Below, piece by piece: positions 1,772-59,794 of a DNA stretch of 64,000 nt. Position numbers and translations under genes: made by a program. This DNA is from Bacteroidales bacterium. Lineage in GTDB: Bacteria > Bacteroidota > Bacteroidia > Bacteroidales > JACABE01. The stretch is taken from the NCBI GenBank assembly GCA_038204725.1, contig JBBRCQ010000005.1, positions 17,030-81,029 of the forward strand. The letters are read 5' to 3'. The notes below the pieces were generated by a model that was given only the letters and a program-made list of their open reading frames with translations, searched no databases and was not told the DNA's origin. The stretch's first letter is position 1. Each line of letters begins with the position of its first letter.

Positions 1772-2664
1772 ATGTTAAAAATAAAATTAAATACCTCTTT
1801 TAGGATCATCATCCTAACACTTTCTTTTTTTGTAGTTGCCAACCCTAGCAATGCTTTTTCCAGAACCTGAGTTTTGAGGAATTGCTGGGTCTTCAAAAGG
1901 ATTCGAAAAAGAAAATTACAAAATTCTTTAAAGAAAAAAGCTGGATTCAGGATACAAGTAATTTATTTGTATGGTATTACGGAATTTCTACGAATGCTGA
2001 CAGTGCGGAAGCTATGCTTGGGCTTCGTGACAATAATTGCAAAAAGATTATACTTTATTATTCAATGAGCGATTCTCTTAAATACAATGAACTTAAAACA
2101 AGTGCTTTAAAAATTTCAGAAAAAGACAGTATTATTTATTTTAAAAATGTATCTATTAAAGACTTTACACTTGAAAAGTTGTATGTTAGATTCTATGAAA
2201 CACATGAAGTAAATGAGCAACCTTTATATGCTTTGTGGATATTTTCTAAAACAGATGAGTGGTATTGGAGGGATTTAAATTTATATTGTCTTCCGTTGGA
2301 AAAGAAAATCAATAATCGGGAAGCAATAAATGAAAATAATGAATCGATATATACTGTTGTAGAGACAGCTCCGGAGTTTTCAGGAGGAGATAGTGCAAGA
2401 ATTGAATATTTAAAGTACAATATACGATACCCTAAATATGCAAGAGAAAAAGGGATACTGGGGACCGTTTATTCAACTTTTATTGTAGAGAAAGATGGTA
2501 GTATTACAGATATTAAAATAGTTAAAGGTATCGGTGGAGGCTGTGATGAAGAAGTAATTTATTTAATCAAAAATATGCCTCTATGGAAACCAGGTACTCA
2601 TAATGGGAAAGCTGTAAGAGTTCAGTTCAATTGGCCAGTCAAGTTTACAATAAGTAAAGATTAA
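1772..2664 (+). pseudogene. TonB C-terminal-domain protein, frameshifted just after its signal peptide (or an indel error in a T5 run)
   Basis: ATG 1772 opens a signal-peptide-like ORF (MLKIKLNTSFRIIILTLSFFVVANPSNAFS) in frame 2 that stops at TGA 1868-1870. The body is in frame 1 (open from 1849; listed ORF 1882..2664 starts at TTG and has no signal peptide). It reads QNLSFEELLGLQK, matching the paralog downstream. The C-terminus has a TonB_C-like sequence (APEFSGGDSARIEYL...GILGTVYSTFIVEKDGSITDIKIVKG). Confidence 0.6.
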
Positions 2665-2728: not shown

Positions 2729-3583
2729 GTGAAACAATCAAACATCTCAACGAAAGTAAAAATTTTCATATTACCCATTCTCCTCTTCGCATTCAGTTGT
2801 AATATTTATTCTCAAAACCTGAGTTTCGAGGAATTATTAAGTTTACAAAAAGAGACTAAGAAAAAAACTGAGAAATTTTTTCAGGAGAAAAAATGGGAGA
2901 AGGATGTAAAAACAGTAAATAAATGGATGCATAAGAAAGAAAATTCCACAGAGAATGTCGATGCGATTTTTACGATTTAGACTGAAAACTGCAAGGAGGA
3001 TATTATCAATTATATCATAAGTGATTCATTTATTTTTAATAGATTAAAAGATAATTTTGTTCTTCTATCAGAAAAAAAGGACAATATTTATTCCGCAGGT
3101 AATTATGTTAATGATTATATTTTCAATGATTTATATGTAGGGTTTTTCCAGGCAAAAAAAACGAAGCAGCCTGACTTTTATGCTGTCTGGATATTTTCAA
3201 TGTCAGATGGCTGGTATTTTAAAAATTTAAACAAATTCTGCTTACCAAAGATCAATGAAAGTAATGCGAAAGCAGCAGATTATTCCAGAGCCGAATTTCC
3301 AGGTGGACAGAAAGAAAGATTAAAATTTATTGAGAAGAACATGGAATATCCAAATGCTGCATATGATAAAGGAATTGAAGGGGCTGTATATGTTAGCTTT
3401 TATGTAGAAGAAGATGGTAGCCTTAGCAATATTGAAATTATCAAAGGATTGGAAGGTGGTTTTAACGAAGAAGTTGTCAGGTTAATAAAACTGATGCCGA
3501 AATGGAAACCTGCTATTCGCGATGGAAAACCAATAAGAATGAAAATCAGTTATCCTATGGCATTTAGGCTAAATGATTTATAA
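2729..3583 (+). pseudogene. TonB C-terminal-domain paralog interrupted by one in-frame TAG
   Basis: Listed ORFs 2729..2980 and 3200..3583 are in the same frame. No other stop lies between TAG 2978-2980 and 3200. The translation across the gap (TENCKEDIINYIISDSF...AVWIFSMSDGWYF) aligns with paralog 1 (DNNCKKIILYYSMSDS...ALWIFSKTDEWYW). The N-terminus is signal-peptide-like. Confidence 0.65.
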
Positions 3584-5722: not shown

Positions 5723-5776
5723 AAAAAAGCTGGCTCAACCCGTCGGGTACGGAGTTCCCGACGGGTTGTAAACCAG
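5723..5776 (-). terminator. rho-independent terminator downstream of ychF
   Basis: Perfect 11-bp GC-rich stem AACCCGTCGGG (5737-5747) / CCCGACGGGTT (5757-5767) with a 9-nt loop. An outer CTGG/CCAG pairing is present. On the minus strand a T6 run follows directly (complement of A 5723-5728). Confidence 0.55.
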
Positions 5777-7081: not shown

Positions 7082-7624
7082 TTACATTTGAGTGTTGGGA
7101 AACATCAGCTCATTTTCTTCAAAACTTTGTTTCAACAATAGATACAGTTCATTGGGCTTTTTATTTTCAATAGTGTAGGTAAACCTTGCTTGCTGGTAAA
7201 ATGATTCTCTTTTATTTAATTGAGTATTCACATAAGTATTTAATTCATCCCGAGAAAGATTCATGAGCAAAGGTCGTTTTTTTTTGGTGTGCAACAACCG
7301 ATCAACGATAGAATTGGGATGTAATTTAAAATATACAGAAATGCCATGCTCATTGATAAGCTGCATATTATTGAAAAAACAGGGAGTTCCTCCACCTGTA
7401 GCTATTACCACATGCTCTTGTTTTAAACTTTCCAGCAAAATACCTTTTTCTAATTCTCTGAATTTATCTTCTCCAAAAAGTTCAAAGAAATTGGTAATGG
7501 TCATTTTATATTTACTTTCAAAAGCGTCATCAATATCAATGAATTCCATGTTTAATTTTCGGGCAAGCTGCTTCCCTATTGTGGATTTCCCACTCGACAT
7601 AAAACCAATCAGAATTATACGCAT
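7082..7624 (-). CDS. aroK: shikimate kinase
   Basis: MRIILIGFMSSGKSTIGKQLARKLNMEFIDID P-loop, ATGGG motif, about 180 aa. Confidence 0.9.
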   Translation of the reverse strand: MRIILIGFMSSGKSTIGKQLARKLNMEFIDIDDAFESKYKMTITNFFELFGEDKFRELEKGILLESLKQEHVVIATGGGTPCFFNNMQLINEHGISVYFKLHPNSIVDRLLHTKKKRPLLMNLSRDELNTYVNTQLNKRESFYQQARFTYTIENKKPNELYLLLKQSFEENELMFPNTQM

Positions 7625-7633
7625 TTGGTTGTT

Positions 7634-7670
7634 GGTTATTAGGTTATTAGGTTATTAGGTTATTAGGTTA
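7634..7670. repeat. octamer tandem array GGTTATTA x4 plus a partial unit
   Basis: Exact units at 7634, 7642, 7650 and 7658, then GGTTA. Lies 10 nt from the aroK start codon. Confidence 0.95.
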
Positions 7671-7671
7671 G

Positions 7672-7792
7672 TGAGCTTTTGCTCAGTCCCGAGCTACAAT
7701 TTCTCGACGCTCAGTACCGAGCTACAATTTCTCGACGCTCAGTCCCGAGCTACAATTTCTCGACGCTAAGTCCCGAGCTACAATTTCTTACG
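7672..7792. repeat. leader stem-loop TGAGC-TTTT-GCTCA followed by a 28-nt unit x4
   Basis: Unit GCTCAGTCCCGAGCTACAATTTCTCGAC starts at 7681, 7709, 7737 and 7765. Copies 2 and 4 have single-base variants, and copy 4 ends TTAC. Confidence 0.95.
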
Positions 7793-7935
7793 AAGTATGA
7801 GTTAGAAATTGTTATTCGGGAAAGTATGAGTTAGAAATTGTTATTCGGGAAAGTATGAGTTAGAAATTGTTATTCGGGAAAGTATAAGTTAGAAATTGTT
7901 ATTCGGAAAAGTATGAGTTAGAAATTGTTATTCGG
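7792..7935. repeat. 29-nt tandem unit x5, whose core is inverted relative to the 28-nt units
   Basis: Unit GAAAGTATGAGTTAGAAATTGTTATTCGG starts at 7792 (28 nt), 7820, 7849, 7878 and 7907. AGAAATTGTTATTCGGG is the imperfect reverse complement of CCCGAGCTACAATTTCT. Confidence 0.95.
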
Positions 7936-7982
7936 GATTAGGTTACTGTTTAATAGTTAAAATTTTAATTCTACTTCCGCTC

Positions 7983-8825
7983 CTACTTTTTCCACTTGTT
8001 ATGTAATTTTCTTTTCTTTTTATTGTTAAGTCCTGAATTGTAGGAACGATTGTTATCACCTTTTGATTTTTCCCATAAACTATTGCTACTACGGCTTTCA
8101 AAATGCACATTCAAATCAAATTTATAAACAACACCCAACGACATATATCCAAAACCTTCCCGTTTGGACGAAGTAGATCTGAAAGCATCCAGATCATCCG
8201 AATTTGTATAATTTAACGCAGTTTCAAAATTAAACAACCATTTTTTATTTAACTGATATCCAATTCCTAATCCTAATTTCAGTAAAGATTCAGTTGTAAA
8301 ATTAGTATGATTTCCATTTTGATCAAATCCCATTGCATTTTGAAATACATCGGTTGTAATATCCCGTCTGATAGCATCAAAACTAAAAAGTCCCATTCCT
8401 GCAAAAGCATAAAATTTGAATTTACTGGATTCCGGCCTTTTCAATATATAATCGAGAAAATGAAATGTAACATCCATGTCCATTGAATAAACAGATCCTT
8501 TGAAATACATACTTGTTTTTTCGTTGCTTCCCGATAGTTTACCATAGGCAAGATGTCCTCTGATTCCCCAAAAACGGGAAATATCTTTTGTTAAACTTAC
8601 ATTTATCATCAAGTTTTTATCGGTATAATAAAATCCACTTAAAGGAGTATTGCTCCATATTCTTCCTTTGTTATCATTTACATCACCATAAAAATAGTTC
8701 ATACCTATATTCGCACCTAAACCCCAGTGATCAAAAAAAGGATAGGTTTGCTGTGCATAAACAATTGATTTACTGAACAGAAATAAGAATAAAACAACAA
8801 ATATTTTAGGGCATTTAGTCAACAT
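7983..8825 (-). CDS. outer-membrane beta-barrel protein (porin-like), same family as the N-terminus of 58454..59794
   Basis: Signal peptide, alternating beta-strand pattern, and N-terminal motif FFDHWGLGANIGMNYFYGDVN (compare FDNWSFNVNGGASLFWGDL in 58454..59794). The tail is basic. Confidence 0.6.
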   Translation of the reverse strand: MLTKCPKIFVVLFLFLFSKSIVYAQQTYPFFDHWGLGANIGMNYFYGDVNDNKGRIWSNTPLSGFYYTDKNLMINVSLTKDISRFWGIRGHLAYGKLSGSNEKTSMYFKGSVYSMDMDVTFHFLDYILKRPESSKFKFYAFAGMGLFSFDAIRRDITTDVFQNAMGFDQNGNHTNFTTESLLKLGLGIGYQLNKKWLFNFETALNYTNSDDLDAFRSTSSKREGFGYMSLGVVYKFDLNVHFESRSSNSLWEKSKGDNNRSYNSGLNNKKKRKLHNKWKK

Positions 8826-9055
8826 CTACAATTACTTTAGAATTTGGTTCAAAATTAGTAATTTTTCCCGCTTTTAAAGGCGATGAATTACACATTATTT
8901 TAATATTATAACAATTGAAATTTCAAAATAGCTCTTAAATGTTTCTGTAAACAAATACTGTCTTTTTAAATGTTGTTGGTTAAAAACGAACTGAGATTGA
9001 TTTAAATTTATATTTACTAAAAGCAAATAAATTTAAGTAAATAAAAATCAGCCAA

Positions 9056-10240
9056 CTATTTAAGATCTATCGGTTTTGAGAAAGCAGGATTGGTAATAAA
9101 TTCATTATCCGTTAAAGTATTCAGAAAAGCTTTTAATTGTTGTTTTTCGATAACTGTGAGTTGCACACCACCATTCATGGCTTGATGCATCAATGAATTA
9201 ACATAAGGTGATAAAATAACACCTTCGCTATAAAAATCCAGCACCTGGTCAATGGTTTGAAACCTTCCATCGTGCATATAGGGTGCTGTTAACAATACAT
9301 TTCTTAAAGTCGGGGCTTTGTATGCACCTTTGTCTGAAATTACGTTAGTTACAGAAAATCTATCCCTGGTGTCGTTGAAAATACTGTCTTTGCCATTGTT
9401 GTAAAACAAATTGGTGGTAAACATAGGATTTCCACTTCCTCCATGACAATGAAAACAATCAGCACCATTTTCGGTGGTAAACAGTACATAACCCTGGAGT
9501 TCTTCGGCTGTTAGATTGGTTTCTCCACGCAAATATTTGTCAAATTTACTGTTACCCGAAATTAAAGTCCTTACAAACTGTGCAATGGCTTTACTAATTC
9601 TATCGTAAGTAACTTCTTCGGTACCAAAAGCTGACTTAAATTTAGGCGGATACATCGTTACACTGGCAATGGTTTGGACTGTTTTTTCGATGCTTCCGTT
9701 CAATTCATGCGGAGCTGCAATTGCCATCCAAACCAATGATTCAACGTTTTTGAAATGATATTGCGGTAATGCAGGAACTCCATAAGCTGCATTCCCTAAC
9801 TGAGAATTATTTTGATTGATAAATCCGTTCCACAAATAGCCATTGTTGTTAAAAACAAGATTTATCATGGGCATCATAAAATGAGGTGTAGGAATACCGG
9901 TCAATCCGAATGTTTTCCCGTTTGGAAATTTAGGATTGTTCATTCCCACTTCAAAACCATTGGCCTGCACATGGCAAGTTGCACAACTCATCAGAGAATC
10001 AGTATGTAATCTACCCGAAAGTCTTCCATCATAAAATAAATATCGGCCTAAGCTTACGCCTTCAACCGTCATGGGATTATCATCCGGAATGTTTAGTAAA
10101 GTTGGGAAATATTTAGGTATCTTTATGGTATAAGGTGTTGGTTGCGTTGTAACAGGAGGCTGCGGTTCGCTATCTTTCTTGCAGCCCCACAAGAGAACAA
10201 GTATAATAATTAAAAAATATGTAGATACAGTTTGTTTCAA
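9056..10240 (-). CDS. di-haem cytochrome c peroxidase family lipoprotein
   Basis: Two CxxCH haem sites (CATCH, CFHCH) and the PTLRNV motif. Lipoprotein-type signal (LLWGC). TTG start at 10238-10240. Confidence 0.85.
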   Translation of the reverse strand: MKQTVSTYFLIIILVLLWGCKKDSEPQPPVTTQPTPYTIKIPKYFPTLLNIPDDNPMTVEGVSLGRYLFYDGRLSGRLHTDSLMSCATCHVQANGFEVGMNNPKFPNGKTFGLTGIPTPHFMMPMINLVFNNNGYLWNGFINQNNSQLGNAAYGVPALPQYHFKNVESLVWMAIAAPHELNGSIEKTVQTIASVTMYPPKFKSAFGTEEVTYDRISKAIAQFVRTLISGNSKFDKYLRGETNLTAEELQGYVLFTTENGADCFHCHGGSGNPMFTTNLFYNNGKDSIFNDTRDRFSVTNVISDKGAYKAPTLRNVLLTAPYMHDGRFQTIDQVLDFYSEGVILSPYVNSLMHQAMNGGVQLTVIEKQQLKAFLNTLTDNEFITNPAFSKPIDLK

Positions 10241-10266: not shown

Positions 10267-10343
10267 GGTTATTGGTTTGGTTATTGAGTTATTGAGTTAT
10301 TGAGTTATTGAGTTATTGAGTTATTAGGTTATTAGGTTACTGA
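10267..10343. repeat. octamer tandem array (GTTATTGA x5, GTTATTAG x2, GTTACTGA)
   Basis: Exact units from 10280 to 10343, preceded by degenerate GGTTATTG GTTTG. The last unit runs into the conserved leader hairpin. Confidence 0.95.
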
Positions 10344-10377
10344 GCTTTTGCTCAGTCCCGAATTACAATTTTCGTCG
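10336..10377. repeat. single copy of the dispersed repeat core (leader hairpin plus CCCGA-nnn-ACAATTT)
   Basis: GTTACTGAGCTTTTGCTCAGTCCCGAATTACAATTTTCGTCG is near-identical to 7666-7704 and 47142-47180. Confidence 0.85.
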
Positions 10378-10433
10378 CACTATTCACTATTCACTCTTCA
10401 CTATTCACTCTTCACTATTCACTCTTCACTATT
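10378..10433. repeat. heptamer tandem array CACTATT/CACTCTT x8, overlapping the stop codon of the oxidoreductase gene
   Basis: Eight contiguous 7-nt units. The CDS stop (TGA, 10419-10421) and its last four codons lie inside the array. Confidence 0.95.
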
Positions 10434-13358
10434 TAAAGCTTCAAACATAATCTCCACCGGATGTAAAGCTATCCTACCTGTTCCGTCTTTAATCTGACAA
10501 CGGCAACTAGTGCCCAATGCAGCAATCGTTATCTCTTCGGATGTTGCTCTGATTGCAGGAAACAAGACCAACTCCCCTACTTTCATCGAAACTTCATAAT
10601 GTTCTTTTTCATACCCAAAAGAACCGGCCATGCCACAACATCCCGATGGAATTTCCTCTACAGAATAGTTTTCGGGAAATGCAAGCATCTTTTTACTGGG
10701 TAAAGTAGAAGCTATGGATTTTTGTTGGCAATGTCCGTGTAATTTTATTTGTTTCGTAACTTTGCTAAAGCTTTCCTTACTTATTTTTCCTTTTTCAACT
10801 TCTTTCATAAAGAACTCATCAAACATCAACGTATTTTCTGCTAATTTTAGTGTAGCAGGTTTTAATTCTTTTCCAACCAAATCAGGGTATTCATCTCTGA
10901 ATGCAAGAATGGCGGATGGCTCAATACCAATTAAAGGAGTTGTATCTGTAATAATATCTTTGAGATAAACTACATTTTGTATCGCAATTTTTTTGGCAGT
11001 TCTTAGCAATCCTTTCGAAAGATATGTTCGTCCGCTTTCAAGATGTTTTGGTACAATGGCTTCATAGCCTAATTTTTCAAGCAATCGGATTGCTTTTATG
11101 CCAATATCTGATTCATTGAAATTGGTAAACTCATCGGCAAACAAATACACTTTACCGTTTGGATATATACTTGTTAATTTGTTTTTTACAACCCATTTTT
11201 TGAATGTAATTTTCGACAATAAAGGAATAGATCTTTTTTGTGAAAAACCAAGAATTGATTTAGCAATACCTGATGTAAATGCATTGGACATCAAAAAATT
11301 AGTTACAGGTATCAGCAATGAACCCAATGCATTGATACGTGAAATATAAGCAATAGCACGTGTTCGCAAAGGAATACCATTGGCATCATAGTAATGCTGC
11401 AAAAATTCGGCTTTTAGTTTTGCTACATCAACACTTGAAGGGCATTCAGATTTACAAGCTTTACATGACAAACACAAATCGAAAACTTCGTATATTTCGT
11501 TATGATCAAACGGGTTTTTTTTAACTGAATTTGTAAGAAATTCACGCAAAATATTAGCTCTAGCCCTTGTGGTAGCATTTTCATTACGGGTTGCCATATA
11601 ACTCGGGCACATGGTGCCACCAATAATTTCCGATTTACGACAATCGCCTGAACCATTGCACTTTTCTGCTGCACGCAATATCCCTTGTTCTTTTGAAAAA
11701 TCAAAAACAGTGTCTATCTTTCTGAATTCTTTTCCTGGTTCATATCTGAGAAAAGTATTCATAGGTGGGGTATTCACGATTTTACCCGGATTAAAAATAT
11801 GATGAGAATCCCAGGTTTCTTTAATTTCCTGTATAATTTTATAATTCTTTTCACCAATCATCATTGGAATAAATTCACCTCTCAGCCTGCCATCACCATG
11901 TTCGCCACTGAGTGAGCCTTTATATTTTTTGACAAGTTGAGCAGTTTCTAATGCTATGGTATGAAACAATTCTACATCTTTTGAGTCTTTCAGGTTGAGT
12001 ACCGGACGCAAATGCAATTCACCGGTGGCTATATGCGCATAATACACACATTTTAAATTGTATTTATCGAGTATAGCTTGAAATTCATCCACATATTCAG
12101 GTAACAATAATGGATTTACAGCAGTATCCTCAATTACGGGAACTGGTTTTGCATCTCCGGGTAAGTTAGACAAAACACCCAATCCTGCTTTCCTCAAATT
12201 CCAAACCTTTTTGATATCTTCTCCAAAAATAACAGGAAAATGATAACCATATCCGGCTGCTCTCATTTCTTTTTCAAGATTTTCGGTTGCCATTGAAACT
12301 GCTTCTTCTGATTCCATTGCAAATTCAACTATAAGCATTGCTTTAGGATTACCTTGTATAAAGAAACGGTTTTTACGTTGTTCGATATTATCTTTGGTAC
12401 AATCCATAATTATATCGTCCATCAATTCAATGGCTACTGGATGATGCTTGAGTGCAATAATATTACCATATAATGCTGCTTTTAAGCTATTACAATGAAT
12501 ACAAACCACTGCAACATGCCTGGGTGGCAAAGCAACAAGATTTAGTGTAATTTCTGTTGAGAATGCCAATGTGCCTTCTGATCCTGCTAAAAGTTTGGAA
12601 AAGTTAAATGCCTTTTCATTTTCAGAAAAAGGCTGCATATCCATTAACAAGTCAATTGCATAACCTGTATTTCGACGTTCCAATGATTTATCAGGATATT
12701 GTGCAAGTATTTCTGCCCTGATTTCTTCATTGCTTAAAACTGCATTGATTTGCTGATAAATTTTATTTTCTAATGTTTGACCAGATAGTTTAGATGCAAA
12801 TTCAGTTTTATTGAGTGATTGAAAGGTTACCTCCGAACCATCACTCAAGAGTGCTTTTACTGCGAGTGTATGTTCACGTGTACTGCCATATACCAGCGAA
12901 TGGGCACCACATGAATTATTACCGACCATGCCACCTATCATACATCTGTTGGATGTAGAAGTTTCCGGACCAAAAAATAGACCTTTCGGAGCAAGAATTT
13001 TATTGAGTTCATCCAACACAACGCCGGGTTCTACTTTAACCCAACGCTCTGTTTCATTGATTTCTAGAATACGACACATATATTTTGAAACATCCACAAC
13101 AATGCCATTACCAACTACTTGCCCGGCAAGTGATGTACCGGCAGTTCGAGGAATTAAAGCTATATTATGTTTATTGGCAAATAATATAAGTAACCGGATA
13201 TCTTCTTTATCTTTAGGACGAACCACTGCAATAGGTATCTCACGATAAGCTGATGCATCCGTTGCATAAAGTAGCCGCATGGTTTCATCCGTATATATAT
13301 CGCCTTTAATTTCGTTACTTAAAGTTTGTATTGCAAGAAGTGTTTGTGATGAGTCCAT
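10419..13358 (-). CDS. FAD-binding plus (Fe-S)-binding oxidoreductase (YdiJ / GlcD-GlcF-fusion-like)
   Basis: 979 aa. N-terminal FAD-linked oxidase (PCMH-type) region, central Cys clusters (CLSCKACKSECP, CNGSGDCRKS), and a C-terminal CCG-like Cys-rich region (SGCCGMAGSFGY). Confidence 0.85.
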   Translation of the reverse strand: MDSSQTLLAIQTLSNEIKGDIYTDETMRLLYATDASAYREIPIAVVRPKDKEDIRLLILFANKHNIALIPRTAGTSLAGQVVGNGIVVDVSKYMCRILEINETERWVKVEPGVVLDELNKILAPKGLFFGPETSTSNRCMIGGMVGNNSCGAHSLVYGSTREHTLAVKALLSDGSEVTFQSLNKTEFASKLSGQTLENKIYQQINAVLSNEEIRAEILAQYPDKSLERRNTGYAIDLLMDMQPFSENEKAFNFSKLLAGSEGTLAFSTEITLNLVALPPRHVAVVCIHCNSLKAALYGNIIALKHHPVAIELMDDIIMDCTKDNIEQRKNRFFIQGNPKAMLIVEFAMESEEAVSMATENLEKEMRAAGYGYHFPVIFGEDIKKVWNLRKAGLGVLSNLPGDAKPVPVIEDTAVNPLLLPEYVDEFQAILDKYNLKCVYYAHIATGELHLRPVLNLKDSKDVELFHTIALETAQLVKKYKGSLSGEHGDGRLRGEFIPMMIGEKNYKIIQEIKETWDSHHIFNPGKIVNTPPMNTFLRYEPGKEFRKIDTVFDFSKEQGILRAAEKCNGSGDCRKSEIIGGTMCPSYMATRNENATTRARANILREFLTNSVKKNPFDHNEIYEVFDLCLSCKACKSECPSSVDVAKLKAEFLQHYYDANGIPLRTRAIAYISRINALGSLLIPVTNFLMSNAFTSGIAKSILGFSQKRSIPLLSKITFKKWVVKNKLTSIYPNGKVYLFADEFTNFNESDIGIKAIRLLEKLGYEAIVPKHLESGRTYLSKGLLRTAKKIAIQNVVYLKDIITDTTPLIGIEPSAILAFRDEYPDLVGKELKPATLKLAENTLMFDEFFMKEVEKGKISKESFSKVTKQIKLHGHCQQKSIASTLPSKKMLAFPENYSVEEIPSGCCGMAGSFGYEKEHYEVSMKVGELVLFPAIRATSEEITIAALGTSCRCQIKDGTGRIALHPVEIMFEALNSEE

Positions 13359-16147: not shown

Positions 16148-17170
16148 TTATTTTGAATTTTCTTTATAATACTTAATCATTTTTGGTAAAACATCACCCA
16201 CATTCGCTATAATTGTATAGTCTGCTATTTTATTAATAGGCGCTTTCGGATCATTATTAATAGAAATAATTTTTGCACTTTGATCCATACCTGCCCTATG
16301 CTGGACAGCTCCTGAAATTCCACAGGCAATATATAATTTAGGTCGAACGGTGATGCCGGTTTGTCCAATTTGGCGGGCATGATCAACAAGACCGGCATCA
16401 ACTGCAGCTCTTGAAGCGCCTACTTCACCTCCGATAGCTTCGGCTAACTGATAAAGCAAATCAAAATTTTCTTTGGTAGCAACACCATAACCCCCTGCAA
16501 CAATAATCTGTGCACCTTTGATATTTATTTTCTGACCTTCAATATGTCTTTCCAATATTTCTACCAAAAAATCATCTTCTTTTAAGAATTTAACAAGGTT
16601 GATTTTTTTTAATTTACCTTTATAGTTCGCATCATATATTTCCTGTTTCATCACGCCTTCTCTGACAGTAGCCATTTGTGGACGGGTATCAGGATTAATG
16701 ATGGTAGCAATAATATTTCCTCCAAAAGCAGGACGAATTTGATACAATAAATTTTTATATTCTTTTTGGGTGCGATTTTCGGTATGATTCCCAATTTCTA
16801 AACTGGTACAATCGGCTGTTAATCCACAACGCAAAGCTGAAGCAACTCTCGGGGCAAGGTCTCTGCCTACTGAAGTAGCTCCAAATATAGCAATTTCCGG
16901 TTTTTCTTCTTTAAAAAGATTTATAACAATGGATGCATGTGGCAATGTCGTGTATGGGAATAAACGTGTTTCCTGGGCCAAATGAATGACATCAACACCA
17001 TATGGAAATAATTGATTTTCGACATTTTGAATTTTATCTCCAATAACAACAGCTTCGAGTTTTATAGAAAGTTCGTTGGCCAGTTTTCGTCCTTTGGATA
17101 ACAATTCAAGACTCACGTCTGCAATTAAACCATCTTCATTAACTTCACAATAAACAAAAATATTATTCAT
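16148..17170 (-). CDS. etfA: electron transfer flavoprotein subunit alpha
   Basis: C-terminal FAD-binding motif (PKLYIACGISGAVQHRAGM), 340 aa, follows etfB. Confidence 0.9.
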   Translation of the reverse strand: MNNIFVYCEVNEDGLIADVSLELLSKGRKLANELSIKLEAVVIGDKIQNVENQLFPYGVDVIHLAQETRLFPYTTLPHASIVINLFKEEKPEIAIFGATSVGRDLAPRVASALRCGLTADCTSLEIGNHTENRTQKEYKNLLYQIRPAFGGNIIATIINPDTRPQMATVREGVMKQEIYDANYKGKLKKINLVKFLKEDDFLVEILERHIEGQKINIKGAQIIVAGGYGVATKENFDLLYQLAEAIGGEVGASRAAVDAGLVDHARQIGQTGITVRPKLYIACGISGAVQHRAGMDQSAKIISINNDPKAPINKIADYTIIANVGDVLPKMIKYYKENSK

Positions 17171-21163: not shown

Positions 21164-22414
21164 ATGAAATTAAAAAATAAAAATTTATTTTTATCATTTT
21201 TGTTAATAACTATTTCAATTACAGCATTTTCTCAAAACACAGCAAAGAAAGACAAAGCTATTTTTATTGAAAAGAAACCAGGCTATTATCAAAATGTTCT
21301 CTTAAAAAATATTGAAATAGACGATAAAAATAATAGTCAAATTGCGGAAGCTGCAAAATCATTTTCAATAGATTTTACAGATAAAACTTTCCCTACCGAC
21401 ACTTCCGCTTACACAAAAATATGGCATAATAATCCCTTAAACCAAGGTTTGACAGGTACTTGCTGGTGTTTTGCAGGTACTTCATTTCTGGAATCAGAAG
21501 TTGAAAGAACAACTACACGTAAAATAAAATTGTCTGAAATGTTTACTGTATATTGGGAATATGTGGAACGGGCTAGATATTTTGTGGAAAAACGAGGCAA
21601 CATGTATTTTAGTGAAGGTTCTGAATCCAATGCTGTTTTGCGAATGATGAATAAATACGGTGCCGTTCCTTCCTATGTATACACTGGTAGATTGCCTGGA
21701 AAAACTGTTCATAATCATTCCAAAATGCTGGAAGAGATGTTGGATTATCTGGAGTCGGTGAAGAGAAATAATCAATGGAACGAAGAAACCGTATTAACTA
21801 CGATTAAAAGTATTCTAAATTTTTATATGGGAGAACCTCCTACCGCATTTACGTTTGATGGAAAAACAATGAGTCCTGTTGTTTTTTATACCGATATTTT
21901 GAAGTTGAATACAATGAATTATTTCAGTTTTATGTCTACCAAAGAATTAGCCTACAATCAGAAAGGATTATTAGACGAACCTGATAATTGGTGGAAAAGT
22001 GATGATTATTACAATTTATCGTTAAACGATTACATGAAACTTGTAAAAAATGCACTTACAAAAGGTTATTCCATTGCAGTGTGCGGTGATGTTTCGGAAC
22101 CAGGATACAACAGCCAAACTCAGGTTGCTATTGTTCCAACCTTTGATATTCCAGCAGAATATATTGATGAAGATAGTCGCCAATATCGTTTGGAAAATAA
22201 ATCAACAACTGACGATCATTGTTTGCATATTGTTGGTTATCAACAAAAAGACGGTAAATATTGGTTTCTGGTTAAAGATTCAGGAAGTGGTGGTTTTGAC
22301 GGAAAAACCAAAGGGTATCGCTTTTATCACGAAGATTATATCAAACTGAAAATGATGAATATATTGATGCATAAAACTGCTGCTAAAGAATTTTTAGATA
22401 AAATAATTAAGTAG
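21164..22414 (+). CDS. C1-family cysteine peptidase (aminopeptidase C / bleomycin-hydrolase-like) with signal peptide
   Basis: Catalytic Cys context GTCWCFAG and His context DDHCLHIVGY. N-terminal signal peptide present. Confidence 0.85.
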   Translation: MKLKNKNLFLSFLLITISITAFSQNTAKKDKAIFIEKKPGYYQNVLLKNIEIDDKNNSQIAEAAKSFSIDFTDKTFPTDTSAYTKIWHNNPLNQGLTGTCWCFAGTSFLESEVERTTTRKIKLSEMFTVYWEYVERARYFVEKRGNMYFSEGSESNAVLRMMNKYGAVPSYVYTGRLPGKTVHNHSKMLEEMLDYLESVKRNNQWNEETVLTTIKSILNFYMGEPPTAFTFDGKTMSPVVFYTDILKLNTMNYFSFMSTKELAYNQKGLLDEPDNWWKSDDYYNLSLNDYMKLVKNALTKGYSIAVCGDVSEPGYNSQTQVAIVPTFDIPAEYIDEDSRQYRLENKSTTDDHCLHIVGYQQKDGKYWFLVKDSGSGGFDGKTKGYRFYHEDYIKLKMMNILMHKTAAKEFLDKIIK

Positions 22415-22469
22415 GTACTTGGAGTACTTGGAGTACTTGGAGTACTTAAAGTTATGAGACTTTAAGTAC
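22415..22469. repeat. 9-mer GTACTTGGA x3 running into a perfect 11-bp hairpin
   Basis: Units at 22415, 22424 and 22433. Stem GTACTTAAAGT (22442-22452) / ACTTTAAGTAC (22459-22469) with loop TATGAG. Starts immediately after the peptidase stop codon. Confidence 0.9.
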
Positions 22470-33572: not shown

Positions 33573-34273
33573 TTGAATACTTTTTAATTGATTAATTAGA
33601 TTTTAAGCAAATATAAAGAATAATTTATAGATAACTTCATTTCTTAAATCAAAATTCTACGCATTCTTTCAATTTGATATATATTTAGTTGATTATATTC
33701 AACTGTACAAGACGTATAAAATTGAAATGCTATCCATATTTAAACCTAATTAATTGATTTTAAATATATTTTTGCTTATTTACCTTTAATTTAAAGATAA
33801 TACTATTTTTAAGAAATAATTAAAATAGTAAAACCGGATGTTTTTATTTAAAAAAGGTTTTTCATTCATATAGGGGATAGGATTTATTTTTTATTAAAAT
33901 ATTGATACATCAATAATGATACAAATTTTTATTTTTAAGATAAATTATCAATATACATTTGTGAATTATCATCATAATGTTACAAATGTATACCAGTAAA
34001 GATACATAAATATTGTTTATGTTTGTAAATTACATTTGTAATTTGTAAATATTTTTGTAATTTTATTAAAATTGTATATATTTGTATAAAATATATTTAT
34101 ATCTATATAATAACCAGTAATTTACAAATTCTATATAAACTATAGGTTTCAATAAATTCACAATTATAGTTGATATGTAAACAGCTATTACATTTTACTT
34201 AAAACTCATTAAATCAATATTTTATATATATTTATATGATTATTTACTTCACAATTGTACTATTTTAATTTAA

Positions 34274-34329: not shown

Positions 34330-34365
34330 TAATCTAAAAAATCATTTCAATTAATATTGTAAACT

Positions 34366-34932
34366 ATGATAAGCCGTATTTTATTAATATTGAAAACACA
34401 AAATTTAAGTTCATCTCAATTTGCAGATGAAATAGGTGTTCAACGTTCAAGTATTTCGCATATACTATCAGGGAGAAATAATCCTAGTTTAGAATTTGTA
34501 ACTAAAATATTAAAACGATATCCTGAAATTAATTCAGATTGGATTATTTTTGGAAAAGGAAGTATGTACAAAGGGAGTGATTCAAATACTGATTTACAAA
34601 CGAAGGAAATAAAGAAAAATATTCTCCAGCCGGACTTATTTAATTTTGATGTACCCGAACAAGACGTCATACAGCCAGTAGAAACTGATGAATCGGACAA
34701 AGAATATAAATATGACAACCTAAGTGAGGTAAAAAGCGATCAAAAAGAAACTATAACTCCTGATATTCAATTTGATACAAAAGAAATAAAAGAAGAAAAA
34801 ACTGAACAAAAATTTGAAAGGAAAATTGAAACAGAAGAAAAAACGATGGAAATTAATTTAACTTCAAAAACGATGGAAAGAATTGTAATTTTTTATAACG
34901 ACAAAACATTTAAAGAGTATTTACCGGAATAA
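34366..34932 (+). CDS. XRE-type helix-turn-helix DNA-binding protein with an acidic low-complexity tail
   Basis: HTH segment LSSSQFADEIGVQRSSISHILSGRNNPSLEFVTKIL. The C-terminal half is rich in E and K. Confidence 0.8.
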   Translation: MISRILLILKTQNLSSSQFADEIGVQRSSISHILSGRNNPSLEFVTKILKRYPEINSDWIIFGKGSMYKGSDSNTDLQTKEIKKNILQPDLFNFDVPEQDVIQPVETDESDKEYKYDNLSEVKSDQKETITPDIQFDTKEIKEEKTEQKFERKIETEEKTMEINLTSKTMERIVIFYNDKTFKEYLPE

Positions 34933-45424: not shown

Positions 45425-47104
45425 TTAGTTAGTTTTTAAATTGATGATTTTAGTTGTTGAATCTATTAAGTGTTCACAATTTACAAATAATTGCTTATAA
45501 ATAATTTTTGCTTCTGTTGATACGGGATTTGCTGTATTTTCATCTGATTGCTCAATATTTTGTTGCTGTCGATGGAATTCCATTTTTACTTCAATGTTTT
45601 TTAATGTATCCATACTATTTTTATTCATTCCCGAATTTTGTTTCAAGTAATCAAAAGTCTCATTAACCAATTCAAATACTTCCAGCAACTGCTCACGTAT
45701 GGGCTGATTAAACCAGATTTTAGATTTGTTTTTATTAACAATTATTTTAAACATATTAAAACATATATTCTTATTTTTTTCAAAATATTCAATGATCTTA
45801 TACAAATTGGAAAGCTCTAAAGCTCCATTTTCACTTAAATTTCTTTGAGAGAATGAAGTTAGAAAATCCATTAATCTTAGCATTTTCTTATCCAGTTTAA
45901 CATCTAACTTAGAAATTTTAAGTAGCATTTTTTCATATTTTTTTTCTTCTTTTTCTAACAGCAAATCCGGAACAAACCGAAACAAGTCAGCATTCATTAT
46001 TCCAATGGTATACAATTCTCTCAGCACAAGTTCTACAGACAATTCAGAAGTGGATAACAAACCGGAATTGATGTTTTTTAAAATAAACTTTTCCTTTTTC
46101 TTTTTTTCTGGAATTAAGAAATGGAGTATTTTCACCATTAACGGAATTAATCCAATCCAAAGCAAAGTATTAATTAAATTAAATAATGTATGGAAAAAGC
46201 ACAATGCAATTGGAATATAATTCTGATTAGTAAATGGAGAAGCATTCCAAAACTTTAGTATTATCCAATCAATTAGTTGCAAAAATGGGTAAAATAGCAA
46301 TAACATCCAGATAACACCTGAAATATTAAAGAAACTATGAGCCAAAGCTGCTCTTTTTGCAGATTTATTGGCTATAAATGCAGCAATATTTGCAGTTACG
46401 GTTGTTCCTATATTTTCACCTAATATCATGGCAGCCGCTAATTCAAAAGATAACAACCCATTTAGAGACATTATGATCGTAAATGTTATCGTGGCACTCG
46501 ATGATTGAATGCCCACTGTAAGCAACATCCCAAATAATACAAACAAAAGTATCGAAAAAAAGTTATCATGAGAAAAAGCCTGAATAAAAGCAAATAAATC
46601 AGTATTATTTTGGATTTCAGGAATTATTGTTGTTAAAAAATCAATACCTAAAAATAACAATGAAAAACCCATTATAAATTCGCCAACAGATTTTAAATAT
46701 CCATCTTTAGAAAACAGCATGGGTAAACTCAATCCAATTAAAGGCAATAAAATCAGACTAAAATTAAACTTCATTCCCAAACCAACAATAAACCAAAGCT
46801 TAATAGTAGTTCCAATATTTGCCCCCATCATTACACCAATTGATTCGGTAAGGGTAAGTAATCCTGCATTTACAAAACTCACCATCAATACAGTTGTTGC
46901 AGAAGATGCCTGAATAATCACTGTAACAAAAAACCCACTGAAAACAGCTCTGAATTTATTAGCTATCATTGATTTAATGATGTTTCTCAATCGAACACCT
47001 GCAACTTTTTGCAATGATTCACTCATGAGTTTCATACCATAGAGAAACAGGCCTATAGCACCTAAAACTCTCAATAATTGATATATAACATCAAAAGCAC
47101 TCAT
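45425..47104 (-). CDS. Na/Pi cotransporter family protein with a PhoU-like C-terminal region
   Basis: Duplicated Na/Pi motifs (QASSATT, QSSSATI and GANIGTT, GENIGTT). The C-terminal half is helical and soluble. Confidence 0.85.
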   Translation of the reverse strand: MSAFDVIYQLLRVLGAIGLFLYGMKLMSESLQKVAGVRLRNIIKSMIANKFRAVFSGFFVTVIIQASSATTVLMVSFVNAGLLTLTESIGVMMGANIGTTIKLWFIVGLGMKFNFSLILLPLIGLSLPMLFSKDGYLKSVGEFIMGFSLLFLGIDFLTTIIPEIQNNTDLFAFIQAFSHDNFFSILLFVLFGMLLTVGIQSSSATITFTIIMSLNGLLSFELAAAMILGENIGTTVTANIAAFIANKSAKRAALAHSFFNISGVIWMLLLFYPFLQLIDWIILKFWNASPFTNQNYIPIALCFFHTLFNLINTLLWIGLIPLMVKILHFLIPEKKKKEKFILKNINSGLLSTSELSVELVLRELYTIGIMNADLFRFVPDLLLEKEEKKYEKMLLKISKLDVKLDKKMLRLMDFLTSFSQRNLSENGALELSNLYKIIEYFEKNKNICFNMFKIIVNKNKSKIWFNQPIREQLLEVFELVNETFDYLKQNSGMNKNSMDTLKNIEVKMEFHRQQQNIEQSDENTANPVSTEAKIIYKQLFVNCEHLIDSTTKIINLKTN

Positions 47105-47141
47105 TAATTTAGTTATTGATTAATAGTTATTATTTTATACA

Positions 47142-47239
47142 GTTACTGAGCTTTTGCTCAGTCCCGAGCTACAATTTCTTACGAAGTATGAGTTAGAAAT
47201 TGTTATTCGGGAAAGTATGAGTTAGAAATTGTTATTCGG
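47142..47239. repeat. compact copy of the dispersed repeat: leader hairpin, one 28-nt-type unit, two 29-nt units
   Basis: 47156-47239 matches 7765-7848 with one mismatch, including the identical 49-nt hairpin CCCGAGCTACAATTTCT-15 nt-AGAAATTGTTATTCGGG (47163-47211 matches 7772-7820). Confidence 0.95.
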
Positions 47240-47249
47240 TATTAAGTTA

Positions 47250-47909
47250 TTATTGAACGAATAGTAAGCTGCCTATTCTCACCATTGTACTACCTTCTTC
47301 TATAGCTATTTGATAATCACCTGACATTCCCATTGAAATTTCTTTAAAAAATGTTTGATCACTAAAGATTGCTATTTTTAGTTTTTCATAAAAGGTTTTA
47401 AGTTGTGCAAATTCCTGATGAATAAGTTGATAATTTGAAGTATAAGTAGCCATTCCCATTACACCAACAATTCTGATATTTTGCATTTCTTTAAATTCTT
47501 TAGCATTTAACATTGCTAAAGCCTCTTTTAAATCAAACCCAAATTTACTTTCTTCGGTAGCAATATAAAACTGCAATAAGCAATCAATAACTCTATTATT
47601 TTTTTGGCCTTCTTTATTAATGACAGTCAATAATTTAGCGCTGTCTACACTATGTATTAAATGAATAAAAGGAGTTATATATTTTACTTTATTGGTTTGC
47701 AAATGACCAATAAAATGCCATTGAATGTCTTTTGGTAAAACATCGTATTTTTCAGCTATTTCAAGGGCTTTGTTTTCTCCAAAAATTCGTTGACCTGCAT
47801 GATATGCTTCTAAAATGGCATCAATAGGTTTTGTTTTGGATACAGCAACTAAAGCTACATTTCCGGGAATATGTTTAAGAATATTTTCAAGATTGTGTTT
47901 TATACCCAT
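47250..47909 (-). CDS. yggS: YggS-family pyridoxal-phosphate homeostasis protein
   Basis: VALVAVSKTK (PLP lysine), HFIGHLQTNK and MGMSGDY motifs. Confidence 0.9.
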   Translation of the reverse strand: MGIKHNLENILKHIPGNVALVAVSKTKPIDAILEAYHAGQRIFGENKALEIAEKYDVLPKDIQWHFIGHLQTNKVKYITPFIHLIHSVDSAKLLTVINKEGQKNNRVIDCLLQFYIATEESKFGFDLKEALAMLNAKEFKEMQNIRIVGVMGMATYTSNYQLIHQEFAQLKTFYEKLKIAIFSDQTFFKEISMGMSGDYQIAIEEGSTMVRIGSLLFVQ

Positions 47910-53779: not shown

Positions 53780-53820
53780 GTTAGTTAATGGTTATTAAGT
53801 TATTGAGTTATTTGAATAAC
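53780..53820. repeat. degenerate GTTATTnA-type octamer repeats near the DUF4340 gene start
   Basis: GTTAGTTAATG GTTATTAA GTTATTGA GTTATTTGAATAAC. The last part is a palindrome, GTTATT-TG-AATAAC. Confidence 0.7.
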
Positions 53821-58453: not shown

Positions 58454-59794
58454 ATGAAAAAATACATTTTAATTTTTATACTGATTTTTCTTTATTTACC
58501 TCATTTAGCTATAAGCCAGAAAACCAGAGAATTTCATTTGTTTGACAACTGGTCATTCAACGTGAATGGTGGTGCCAGCCTTTTTTGGGGTGATCTTAGA
58601 GAATACAAATTTTATCCTGTCAATAATTATGAAAGTGAAAGAAATCTAGCTTATGGATTTGTGCTTTCCAAACAGCTAAATTCTATTTTCCATATTCGCG
58701 GTCAACTTATTAAAGGAAACTTATCCGGTACAAGAAGAACTTTAAATAGCTATTTTAATGCTGAATTTAATGAATATATTGTTAATGCTACTATTGATTT
58801 CAGCAGAATCATTTTTGGAGATAAACCAGATAGAAAATTAACCATGTATGGCATAGGAGGTATAGGTTTTATTGATTTCAGATCTTTAAAAAAAGAATTA
58901 GTTAGCAATAAATATATCGACAGTCGTGGATATACCATAAATGGCAGCTTAAAAGAAAGCCATAAAATGGTAACAGAAACCATTATTCCATTTGGCTTTG
59001 GAGTTAAATACAATTTAAGTTCAAGATTAGCACTCAATTTTGAAAATATTTGGTCTATTGCAAATACAGACTTTATTGATGTGAGTGGAGCTAATAATTT
59101 TGACGTAAATTCAGGCGGATTTAAATATGATTTTTTAACCTATACTTCATTTGGACTTACATTTAAATTTTCACAATCAGAAAAGGAAAAGAAGATTCCA
59201 TTAATTGAACCTACTGATGAAATTACAGAAGATGAGCCAATTGAAATAATTAAAAATGAATCAAAAAATACCGAATCAGAAATAAAAACAGAGACAAAAG
59301 ATATAGAAACAGCTGTAAAAGATGATTCAGAAACAATTGAACCAGTCAAAATAATTAAAGCTGAACCCAAAACTACGGAACCTGAGATAAAAAATGAGAC
59401 AAAGCATATAGAAACGGTTTTAACAGATGAATCGAAAGCAATTGAAACAACGCTAATAATTAAAAATAAAATTGCTGAAAAGCCGGAATTTGATTATGAG
59501 TTCAGAGTTCAGGTATTTGCTTCATTTTTTAAAGCAAATATGCGTTTTATCAAAAAATATAATATTTCTGAACCAATTACAGAGGATTTCAACGGTGTAT
59601 TATACACCTATTCAGTAGGTTCATTTAAAACATATACTGAAGCTAAAGCAAAAGCTTATCAATTGATTACTGAGAACAAAGCGTATGGTGCATTTGTTAT
59701 TGGAATAAAAGGAAACAAACGACTTTATTCATTAATTGAATTGCTTTCGAACGAAGAAAAAGCTGCATTGAAAGTTTCATCTAAAAAAAAATAG
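58454..59794 (+). CDS. outer-membrane beta-barrel protein with an acidic tandem-repeat linker and a C-terminal SPOR-like domain
   Basis: The N-terminal half is paralogous to 7983..8825. A 35-aa unit is repeated twice in the linker. The C-terminus (FRVQVFASFF...YSVGSFKTYTEAKAKA) is SPOR-like. Confidence 0.7.
   Translation: MKKYILIFILIFLYLPHLAISQKTREFHLFDNWSFNVNGGASLFWGDLREYKFYPVNNYESERNLAYGFVLSKQLNSIFHIRGQLIKGNLSGTRRTLNSYFNAEFNEYIVNATIDFSRIIFGDKPDRKLTMYGIGGIGFIDFRSLKKELVSNKYIDSRGYTINGSLKESHKMVTETIIPFGFGVKYNLSSRLALNFENIWSIANTDFIDVSGANNFDVNSGGFKYDFLTYTSFGLTFKFSQSEKEKKIPLIEPTDEITEDEPIEIIKNESKNTESEIKTETKDIETAVKDDSETIEPVKIIKAEPKTTEPEIKNETKHIETVLTDESKAIETTLIIKNKIAEKPEFDYEFRVQVFASFFKANMRFIKKYNISEPITEDFNGVLYTYSVGSFKTYTEAKAKAYQLITENKAYGAFVIGIKGNKRLYSLIELLSNEEKAALKVSSKKK

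Follow-up and report, generated by a model that had tools for sequence, protein, structure and literature searches.

A putative dispersed family of composite palindromic repeats, with arms amplified in tandem, in an uncultured Bacteroidales lineage

Introduction

Composite interspersed repeats that contain variable numbers of tandem modules and are co-transcribed have been described as BOX (PMC3049150), as BIME-2 and REP clusters (PMC3333891, PMC3733652), and as BrickBuilt or PgRS of P. gingivalis (PMC4596501). Here we describe a repeat of this kind in a 64-kb stretch of DNA ("the window") from an uncultured Bacteroidales bacterium (positions 17,030 to 81,029 of the forward strand of contig JBBRCQ010000005.1, assembly GCA_038204725.1). 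The repeat lies in the spacer between a gene for an outer membrane protein (OMP) and aroK, and we call this copy locus A. Locus A is probably one copy of a lineage-specific, dispersed family of composite palindromic non-coding repeats whose arms have been amplified in tandem, because one of its junctions occurs three times in the window and two other loci there closely match parts of it.

BOX, from Streptococcus pneumoniae, has the structure boxA-boxB(n)-boxC, and the copy number of boxB differs between loci and between strains (PMC3049150). The copy number of BIME-2 also varies by locus and strain, and the copies at one locus are well conserved (PMC3333891). A REP is an imperfect palindrome of 20-40 nt, at whose foot a GTAG (or CGTC) tetranucleotide is conserved and unpaired (PMC3333891, PMC3733652). 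BrickBuilt/PgRS elements are dispersed, non-autonomous, species restricted, and always intergenic, with roughly 10 to 20 copies; each contains a spacer-less minisatellite of 23- or 41-nt units, repeated from 1 to about 23 times depending on the locus, and annotation pipelines predict hypothetical genes over them (PMC4596501). An initial annotation of the window, made by reading the sequence, matched the architecture of locus A to no described class, but these three systems are comparable. Since locus A works like these composite repeats yet lacks the sequences and structures that define them, it represents a new, sequence-unrelated family of composite interspersed repeats, of a kind that is already known (BOX, BIME, BrickBuilt).

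Arrays and hairpins at the aroK locus

Locus A is flanked by the OMP gene (7983..8825, minus strand; Pfam OMP_b-brl) and by aroK, which encodes shikimate kinase (7082..7624, minus strand; PF01202). Both proteins have the same lengths as their orthologs, so the 358-nt spacer is truly intergenic. Using Tandem Repeats Finder and direct reading, we identified three abutting arrays and a tetraloop hairpin within positions 7623-7937. The 8-mer array (ATTAGGTT/GGTTATTA; 7623-7670) has a period of 8, 6.1 copies, and 90% matches; it includes four perfect copies of GGTTATTA at 7634-7665, with degenerate copies on either side. The 28-mer array (GCTCAGTCCCGAGCTACAATTTCTCGAC; 7681-7788) has a period of 28, 3.9 copies, and 96% matches, and the 29-mer array (AAGTATGAGTTAGAAATTGTTATTCGGGA; 7793-7937) has a period of 29, 5.0 copies, and 96% matches. 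The hairpin, H1, was read directly at 7671..7686 as GTGAGC TTTT GCTCAG, with TGAGC-TTTT-GCTCA at 7672-7685. Its stem is 5 bp at locus A and 7 bp at the two other loci in the window (loci B and C, below). GCTCAG is both the 3' half of H1 and the first six bases of the first 28-mer unit.

The two long arrays form the arms of a palindrome. The left-arm array (7681..7792) comprises four 28-nt units of the form GCTCAG-TCCCGAGCTACAATTTCT-CGAC, of which the second and fourth (A2 and A4) carry one private substitution each; the last unit terminates in TACG, which is the loop. The right-arm array (7793..7937) comprises five 29-nt units of the form AAGTATGAGTT-AGAAATTGTTATTCGGGA, and its fourth unit (B4) carries two private substitutions. 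The first 29-mer copy adjoins the loop and is for this reason offset by 28 nt. Between the arrays is a central hairpin (7780..7812) with a perfect 9-bp stem, ACAATTTCT/AGAAATTGT, and a 15-nt loop. This hairpin lengthens to an 18-bp imperfect helix (7771-7821), in which the innermost arms form 15 Watson-Crick pairs and one G-T pair out of 18; the arms are 81-83% complementary. All of the long units share one core (17 nt as the query, 18 nt as the arm), which is in opposite orientations in the 28-mers and the 29-mers. When we searched with the 17-nt core and allowed up to 3 mismatches, we found 11 matches in the window, versus 0.12 expected from shuffles. Within the arrays, four matches were on the plus strand (in the 28-mers) and four were on the minus strand (in the 29-mers); the fifth minus-strand core, in unit B4, was read directly.

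Much of this agrees with the initial annotation, which had described the three abutting arrays without unique spacers, the TGAGC hairpin, the inverted core, the 9-bp stem with its 15-nt loop, and the two co-directional minus-strand neighbors. One small correction is the offset of the first 29-mer copy, given above. Its statement that no open reading frame (ORF) covers the array needs a qualification: mechanical ORFs of 51 amino acids (7679..7834, plus strand) and 32 amino acids (7671..7769, plus strand) do exist, but they are not credible genes.

Just beyond the right arm, TTAGGTTA at 7938..7945 is an exact copy of the 8 nt that precede H1 (7663-7670). This pair could be either a target-site duplication or the terminus of the element within GGTTA-type repeat DNA; a duplication is possible but unproven, as the flanks themselves consist of GGTTA-type repeats.

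The spacer is predicted to fold strongly. The free energies were -79.2 kcal/mol (z = -5.2) for minus-strand RNA, -105.2 kcal/mol (z = -4.4) for plus-strand RNA, and -42.4 kcal/mol (z = -5.3) for DNA, and each was below that of every shuffle.

Some other ideas about the array were rejected. A small hairpin within each 28-mer unit (GTCGAG...CTCG, or CGAA...TTCG at locus C, an apparent compensatory change) folded no better than shuffles (z = +0.6). The array is not a CRISPR array, as the units abut without unique spacers. Iteron and centromere readings fail for want of par or rep genes. For an inverton, the 15-nt gap is too short to be an invertible segment.

Further copies of the element

The 21-nt junction of H1 and the left arm, TGAGCTTTTGCTCAGTCCCGA, has three exact copies in the window, where none would be expected by chance. 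The second copy, locus B (47146..47241), is a minimal element: H1 (47146-47161; CTGAGC TTTT GCTCAG), one left arm (47162-47179), a loop (TACGAAGTATGAGTT) that is identical to locus A's, and two right arms with a period of 29 nt (47184-47241). Locus B is identical to the innermost part of locus A (7765-7848) at 83 of 84 positions, including an exact run of 80 nt. Together with flanking AATAAC-type repeats, it occupies the whole 145-nt spacer between a YggS-like gene (47250..47909, minus strand) and a Na/Pi cotransporter gene (45425..47104, minus strand). The counterpart of the TTAGGTTA pair is TACAGTTA / TTAAGTTA, which match at 6 of 8 positions. The fold of locus B has z = -5.6, and that of the minimal element has z = -7.2; the minimal element folds into two directly abutting coaxial hairpins, with z of about -7 on either strand.

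The third copy, locus C (10340..10371), is a half element: H1 (10340-10355) is followed by a variant left arm, TCCCGAATTACAATTT, and the right arm is absent. It is 90% identical, over 68 nt, to the left side of locus A (7635-7702), and the junction GGTTATTAGGTTA is the same at both loci, with C or G and then TGAGC after it. Locus C lies between an FAD-oxidase gene (10419..13358, minus strand) and a cytochrome c peroxidase gene (CCP_MauG; 9056..10240, minus strand). It is flanked by 8-mer repeats (10279-10336) and by eight copies of CACTATT (10378-10433), and no duplicated pair flanks it. In about 10 kb of adjoining sequence, from two flanking Logan contigs, we found no further copy.

All three loci have the same orientation, lie between co-directional minus-strand genes, and have H1 beside the leader of the downstream gene.

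The left-arm array is open in all three plus-strand frames, and we searched its translations against a collection of 5.8 billion proteins. This identified two short "proteins," both from NCBI only: P0124, from a contig of 172,135 bp, and P0125, from a contig of 83,765 bp. P0124 reads, in order, GYWVTELF (an 8-mer and then H1), a left arm, three 13-residue (39-nt) left-arm units (DAKRQLSPEPQFL), a TKYE loop, and two right arms. Its right arms are read in different frames, which implies a 22-nt period, and residues 58-76 match the translation of locus B with 100% identity. In P0125, a tandem repeat of 24 nt accompanies two left arms, the loop, and two right arms. Both are spurious ORFs that translate through paralogous copies of the element, and we infer these copies from the protein sequences. 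When 5.8 billion clustered proteins and 1.84 billion representatives were searched with profiles, nothing beyond P0124 and P0125 was found.

Overall, the window contains three copies in 64 kb, and there are at least 2 more on other contigs. The number of modules varies: four left arms of 28 nt and five right arms of 29 nt at locus A; one and two (29 nt) at locus B; one and none at locus C; a single left arm and then three 39-nt units, with two right arms at 22-nt spacing, in P0124; and two of each in P0125. Judging from these copies, the family is dispersed but rare in public data, and the tandem multiplication of both arms, with unit lengths that are specific to each locus, is recurrent.

Absence from related bacteria and from databases

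The nearest relatives by the AroK protein are uncultured Bacteroidota or Bacteroidales metagenome-assembled genomes (MAGs), at 72-81% identity. Three relatives, L005 (GCA_037133555.1), L007 (JGI 3300021166), and L013 (Logan SRR12042537), conserve the gene order ETF-ETF-ACAD-hyp-FAD oxidase-CCP-OMP-aroK, with ychF next on any contig that reaches that far. The OMP-aroK spacer is 358 nt in the window versus 67 nt in L005, 42 nt in L007, and 67 nt in L013; for the spacer between the FAD oxidase and CCP, the lengths are 178, 123, 54, and 29 nt, respectively. Searches with blastn-short and nhmmer did not find the hairpin element in about 70 kb of the relatives' DNA. That the relatives' spacers are short and lack the element argues that it is a lineage-specific insertion and not an ancestral sequence. 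Of the options offered by the initial annotation, a tandemly amplified, dispersed element similar to REPINs or miniature inverted-repeat transposable elements (MITEs) is the one that we favor, given the further copies in the window, the paralogs on other contigs, and the empty orthologous spacers.

The comparison with L005 also shows a difference in a neighboring protein. The CACTATT/CACTCTT array beside locus C (eight copies, 10378-10433) extends into the 3' end of the FAD-oxidase ORF, whose last codons and stop codon it provides, so the array rewrote the C terminus of this protein. The protein ends in ...EALNSEE in the window and in ...EALIK in L005.

The databases that we searched gave no credible match to the element. 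A scan of the whole window against Rfam gave no matches at the gathering thresholds, and more permissive matches were at chance level only (E of at least 5). The minimal element had no match in PLSDB plasmids or INPHARED phages (blastn). An exact 20-mer, GAGCTTTTGCTCAGTCCCGA, had one match in 185,579 species-representative genomes (in a coding region from Blastocatellia) and one match in JGI metagenomes (in an unrelated contig); in both cases the hairpin partner was absent, and the matches look like chance. We rejected a viral origin, as scans of IMG/VR with three unit patterns gave only isolated matches of 16-20 nt, without the partner arm or the hairpin. Two related viral contigs from IMG/VR contain a 20-nt stretch of the left arm, TCCCGAGCTACAATTTCTTA (L017, 1313-1332; L018, 6763-6782), with neither the hairpin nor the partner arm, and these matches are probably due to chance.

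Leader repeats

The initial annotation treated the three arrays as one unique architecture, but the 8-mer array belongs to a separate class: it is an AATAAC-type, unstructured leader repeat before the start of aroK (7623..7670, minus strand). On the sense strand of aroK, it comprises four copies of TAATAACC plus degenerate copies and reads TAACC(TAATAACC)x4 AACAACCAA ATG; the repeats stop 9 nt before the ATG (7624). In the predicted RNA fold, this leader is unpaired. The window contains five such sets in 64 kb (7634-7665, 10279-10336, 39739-39764, 47105-47140, and 53789-53812). The units, TAATAACC, TCAATAAC, or CTTTAAC, are 7-8 nt, and on the sense strand they precede genes that follow a co-directional gene. 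The distance from the repeat to the start codon is 9 nt for aroK, 8 nt for the Na/Pi cotransporter gene, 21 nt for a DUF4340 gene, 1 nt for a SpoU gene, and about 30 nt for CCP.

The set before the DUF4340 gene (three AATAAC-type copies, 53789..53812, minus strand; gene start at 53771) has no hairpin element. L005 also has AATAAC-type repeats, at 7768-7814, within the orthologous CCP spacer, and at 16948-16996, immediately before the start of another gene. Because the leader repeats are found in L005, and on their own before the DUF4340 gene, they predate the hairpin element and do not depend on it. Either the hairpin element targets leader repeats or it carries one or two copies along with it. 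More broadly, leader repeats of 7-8 nt may be a lineage-wide feature of translation start regions.

The closest described analogs are TAACTGA heptamer repeats, which are found upstream of start codons in Beggiatoaceae, Cyanobacteria, and five Bacteroidetes and for which a role in translation has been suggested but not shown (PMC4679880). Like those, the leader repeats are short forward direct repeats, in 2-6 or more copies, that lie a few nucleotides upstream of start codons; there is no Shine-Dalgarno site, the downstream genes are functionally unrelated, and the spacers of close relatives are shorter and lack the repeats (PMC4679880). In contrast, the unit here is based on AATAAC and is mostly 8 nt, and no more than five sets were seen in the 64 kb; because the unit differs, the array is an analog by position and form and is not the same repeat. 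Also, an association with a hairpin element is seen only here and is not described for the TAACTGA repeats.

Transcription context

The minus-strand spacers of loci A, B, and C do not contain TAnnTTTG, the -7 promoter motif of Bacteroidota. The nearest occurrences are upstream of the OMP gene (8850-8857), upstream of the YggS-like gene (47924-47931), and inside the 3' end of the FAD-oxidase ORF (10442-10449). We therefore rejected a promoter inside the element: none of the three spacers has the motif, and the spacer of locus A has no sigma-70-like site. An intrinsic terminator was rejected as well. A scan of 7625-7982 for a hairpin plus a T run was empty on both strands, and on the sense strand H1 is followed by TAACCTAATAACC.

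With neither a promoter motif nor a terminator in the three spacers, the elements probably form part of longer transcripts (OMP-aroK, FAD oxidase-CCP, and yggS-Na/Pi), where they would fold into stable stems. The initial annotation had also proposed a structured RNA or a transcript insulator, and this seems compatible with our results because the element lies inside apparent operons. The uniform orientation of the three copies is a hint, but not evidence, of an effect on expression.

Comparison with known repeat families

Like BOX, the element is a small non-coding composite in which the outer modules pair and the number of tandem modules varies; in BOX, the variable modules are internal (PMC3049150). 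BOX elements also lie between genes and are co-transcribed, and long copies of BOX yield spurious ORFs, as with P0124 and P0125 here (PMC3049150). However, the two have no sequence similarity and come from different phyla. BOX amplifies boxB, which lies between the pairing modules and hardly pairs itself, whereas here it is the pairing arms that are amplified, each on its own side, which gives the helix many possible registers. Neither terminal inverted repeats nor target-site duplications, both features of BOX, are established for this element. The ordered modules, the variable tandem copies, and the pairing outer modules are a likeness of architecture only, and the element is not a member of BOX.

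The resemblance to BIME-2 and other clustered REPs, which are found in enterobacteria and pseudomonads, is that extragenic palindromic units form tandem clusters, mostly between unidirectional or convergent genes, and are presumed to be transcribed. BIME-2 alternates REPs with inverted REPs (y and z2), while here four plus-strand cores are followed by five minus-strand cores that face them. Furthermore, the arms are not REP-type palindromes with GTAG or CGTC at the foot, and no RAYT was found in the sequence that we examined. H1 is a perfect hairpin of 16-18 nt without a GTAG or CGTC foot. A GTAG does occur 6 nt from the foot of H1, on the minus strand (AAATTGTAGCTCGGGA), but it lies inside the stem of the second hairpin, and the right arm has GTTA instead. 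In two copies within P0124, the GTAG is probably replaced by GTGG and GCAG, as judged from the peptide changes L to P and T to A. REPINs, like this element, consist of two inverted short copies around a spacer that form one long hairpin, and they are dispersed and extragenic. But REPINs have a cognate single-copy RAYT, a conserved GTAG, and tens to hundreds of nearly identical copies that are not internally amplified, and none of these features is established here.

BrickBuilt (MITE464/PgRS) is from P. gingivalis, which belongs to the Bacteroidales and hence to the same phylum, Bacteroidota. BrickBuilt has a leader and a tail of 200-300 nt that end in IS5-type inverted repeats, GAGACCTTTGCA, and these are absent here: GAGACCTTTGCA had no match near any of the loci, and its three matches in the window at 2 mismatches are at chance level. 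BrickBuilt contains one minisatellite, whose repeats are not the arms of a palindrome, while this element has two opposed minisatellites. BrickBuilt also carries promoter activity, whereas the element here has no promoter motif. As for MITEs in general, the element is small, non-coding, and multicopy, with empty sites in relatives, as a MITE would be, but its ends (GGTTA-CTGAGC... and ...TTCGGGA-TTAGGTTA) are not inverted copies of each other.

Mechanism and alternative explanations

From the anatomy, the dispersal, the variable module number, the absence from relatives, and the folding potential, we infer how the family might move, be amplified, be transcribed, and affect expression. The basic element is about 75-100 nt and consists of two abutting hairpins: H1, with a 7-bp stem and a tetraloop, and H2, with an 18-bp imperfect stem formed by the left arm (TCCCGAGCTACAATTTCT) and the right arm (AGAAATTGTTATTCGGGA) around a 15-nt loop. 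Such an element would have inserted into the OMP-aroK spacer, and each arm, with a few adjoining bases, would then have been multiplied head to tail, to 4 and 5 copies, to give a multi-register palindrome of about 250 nt. The arms could expand and contract by slipped-strand mispairing or by unequal recombination, and a second copy of an arm would allow alternative hairpin registers, which would favor further slippage. Alternatively, a hairpin-specific nuclease that mobilizes the family might also amplify the arms, as has been proposed for TnpAREP and BIMEs (PMC3333891). The family might spread by mobilization or by recombination between GGTTA-rich leader regions. If the minus strand is transcribed within an OMP-aroK mRNA, the repeat would form a long stem-loop and leave the leader single stranded. 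Any effect on expression, such as protection from 3' exonucleases or a target for an RNase that uncouples the cistrons, would be a by-product or an exaptation.

Several observations weigh against a dispersed, mobile family. It comprises just three copies known from DNA and two inferred copies. The number of long units at locus A comes from the MAG assembly alone. No transposase, RAYT, or integrase was identified by Pfam among the scanned ORFs of the window with at least 100 amino acids (five further genes, ETF, ETF, ACAD, CCP, and ychF, were judged from the Pfam tables of orthologs or from identical Logan gene calls); the neighborhood is housekeeping chromosome, with dnaN, recF, uvrB, lpxD, ispH, and others. 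Terminal inverted repeats are absent, and the target-site duplication is clean at one locus only. The copies could have been dispersed by gene conversion or recombination between existing GGTTA-rich leader repeats. Finally, relative to transcription the three copies point the same way, and each abuts the leader of a downstream gene, which a selfish element need not do. This bias hints at selection or function, although the probability of its arising by chance for three copies is about 1/4.

If locus A does represent such a family, then an uncultured lineage of Bacteroidota gains a new repeat family, in a phylum for which few such elements have been described (BrickBuilt/PgRS is one). The geometry is uncommon, as each arm of the palindrome is its own minisatellite and both are amplified separately. 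Such loci are likely to be hot spots of length polymorphism and to break short-read assemblies. The arrays also put spurious ORFs into public protein databases, which is relevant to annotators. Otherwise, the interest is modest unless an effect on expression or a new mobilizing enzyme is found.

Could the copy numbers, or the entire amplification, be an artifact of the MAG assembly, with a single element like locus B at the true locus? The source is a MAG contig, and in the public collection, the AroK protein was found only in the NCBI contig (106,319 bp) and in Logan unitigs of run SRR19962012, whose genes are identical to those of the window. These unitigs reproduce the left flank, with four copies of TAATAACC, and the right flank as far as the first unit of the right arm, and then they end; the flanks therefore rest on a separate assembly of SRR19962012. 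Unitigs with k = 31 necessarily break at repeats that are longer than k, so they cannot cross the array or confirm the number of units. The breaks fall exactly at the repeats of the element, which we count in favor of a repeat family. Also, assemblers usually collapse tandem repeats rather than expand them, and the private substitutions in A2, A4, and B4 form a non-periodic pattern. Reads are usually longer than either the longest exact repeat inside the array (64 nt) or the longest exact match elsewhere (80 nt); given these lengths and the private substitutions, ordinary 150-nt reads could resolve the array. Two other contigs have multi-unit arrays of both arms as well, and we consider an artifact very unlikely. 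Similarly improbable is a classical family in disguise, that is, a REP or REPIN mobilized by a RAYT, or a MITE that is derived from an insertion sequence, has terminal inverted repeats, and is catalogued elsewhere. Such families are also extragenic, palindromic, and dispersed, and besides the GTAG in the left arm (on the minus strand), this idea draws on what is known of TnpAREP: its subclass 2.6 is mainly restricted to Bacteroidetes, with "atypical secondary structures" on its flanks (PMC6006769), and TnpAREP can assemble tandem copies of BIMEs in vitro (PMC3333891). But no REP-sized palindrome has this GTAG at its foot, the right arm has GTTA in its place, and it is probably changed in two of the P0124 copies. 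Neither terminal inverted repeats nor the BrickBuilt/IS5 inverted repeat is present, Pfam identified no Y1 transposase among the genes of the window that it covered, and the family was not matched in Rfam, GTDB representatives, JGI metagenomes, IMG/VR, PLSDB, or INPHARED.

The remaining explanations concern a function for the host. The initial annotation suggested a phased protein-binding array, and locus A does have nine near-identical copies of an 18-bp site at 28- to 29-bp spacing, in two opposed blocks, on which a protein complex might assemble, as at an operator array, a centromere-like site, or a topological or gyrase site; BIMEs bind IHF, gyrase, and Pol I (PMC3333891). This was not borne out. 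The unit lengths of 28, 39, 29, and 22 nt across loci imply that the phasing is not constant, and 28-29 bp is about 2.7 helical turns, so successive sites would not be on one face of the helix. Given also that no par, rep, or regulator gene is adjacent, that minimal copies have just 2-3 sites, and that the same element precedes unrelated genes, we find a DNA-binding platform highly doubtful. An intercistronic RNA module that sets the relative expression of the upstream and downstream cistrons is unlikely, and it overlaps with the dispersed-repeat reading. The stacked hairpins would be a barrier to 3' exonucleases or a site for RNase III or RNase E, the AAUAAC leader would be a landing pad for ribosomes, and the number of arms would tune the effect. 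All three copies are oriented alike relative to transcription, between co-directional genes and with H1 next to the downstream AATAAC leader; the promoter motif and terminators are absent between the genes; the folds are strong and the leader is unpaired; and for REP, BOX, and ERIC, effects on the stability or the cleavage of mRNA transcribed together with them have been reported or proposed (PMC3049150, PMC3733652). However, the orthologous spacers of three relatives lack the element, so the same genes manage without it, and the flanking genes are functionally unrelated (aroK, cytochrome c peroxidase, and a Na/Pi transporter). Both strands fold about equally, with one wobble pair each, so neither strand is favored; there is no match in Rfam, and the hairpins of the individual units are no better than those of shuffles. 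A more specific proposal, which we think is quite unlikely, is that, in a Bacteroidota lineage that does not use Shine-Dalgarno sites, the hairpin element works jointly with the AAUAAC leader as a lineage-specific intercistronic cassette. The multi-register stem would act as a processing or stability barrier for the upstream cistron, the A/C-rich landing pad would keep the downstream start codon accessible, and the number of units, varying by slippage, would be a heritable dial of expression. In a weaker variant, the arm-by-arm amplification would be the footprint of a single-strand nuclease or transposase that acts on the hairpin. If the element or the AATAAC leaders do affect expression, then this would bear on how operons are tuned in bacteria without Shine-Dalgarno-led initiation.

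Other features of the window

The window contains other repeats as well. A G+C-rich palindrome, AACCCGTCGGG-N9-CCCGACGGGTT, lies downstream of ychF (5737-5767) and has a single copy in the window. Two Logan unitigs (L015 and L003) end inside it, which suggests another repeat family with copies elsewhere or a polymorphism of the loop. A peptidase C1-like gene (21164..22414) is directly followed, after its stop codon, by 3.7 copies of another repeat, GTACTTGGA (22415-22447). At 59244-59467, a tandem repeat with a 105-nt unit (2.1 copies, 76% matches) lies inside an ORF (58454..59794) of 446 amino acids that has no Pfam match.

About 0.8 kb at 33573-34365 is AT rich, has no ORF of at least 40 amino acids, and contains several TTACAAATGTA / TTACATTTGTAA palindromes. 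This region is upstream of an HTH_3 (XRE-type) gene (34366..34932) and about 0.8 kb downstream of recF, and it may be a cluster of operators or another regulatory region. Finally, the window has two TonB_C ORFs (1882..2664 and 3200..3583) separated by a 535-nt gap, where L005 has one TonB_C gene; the pair may be a duplication or a disrupted gene.

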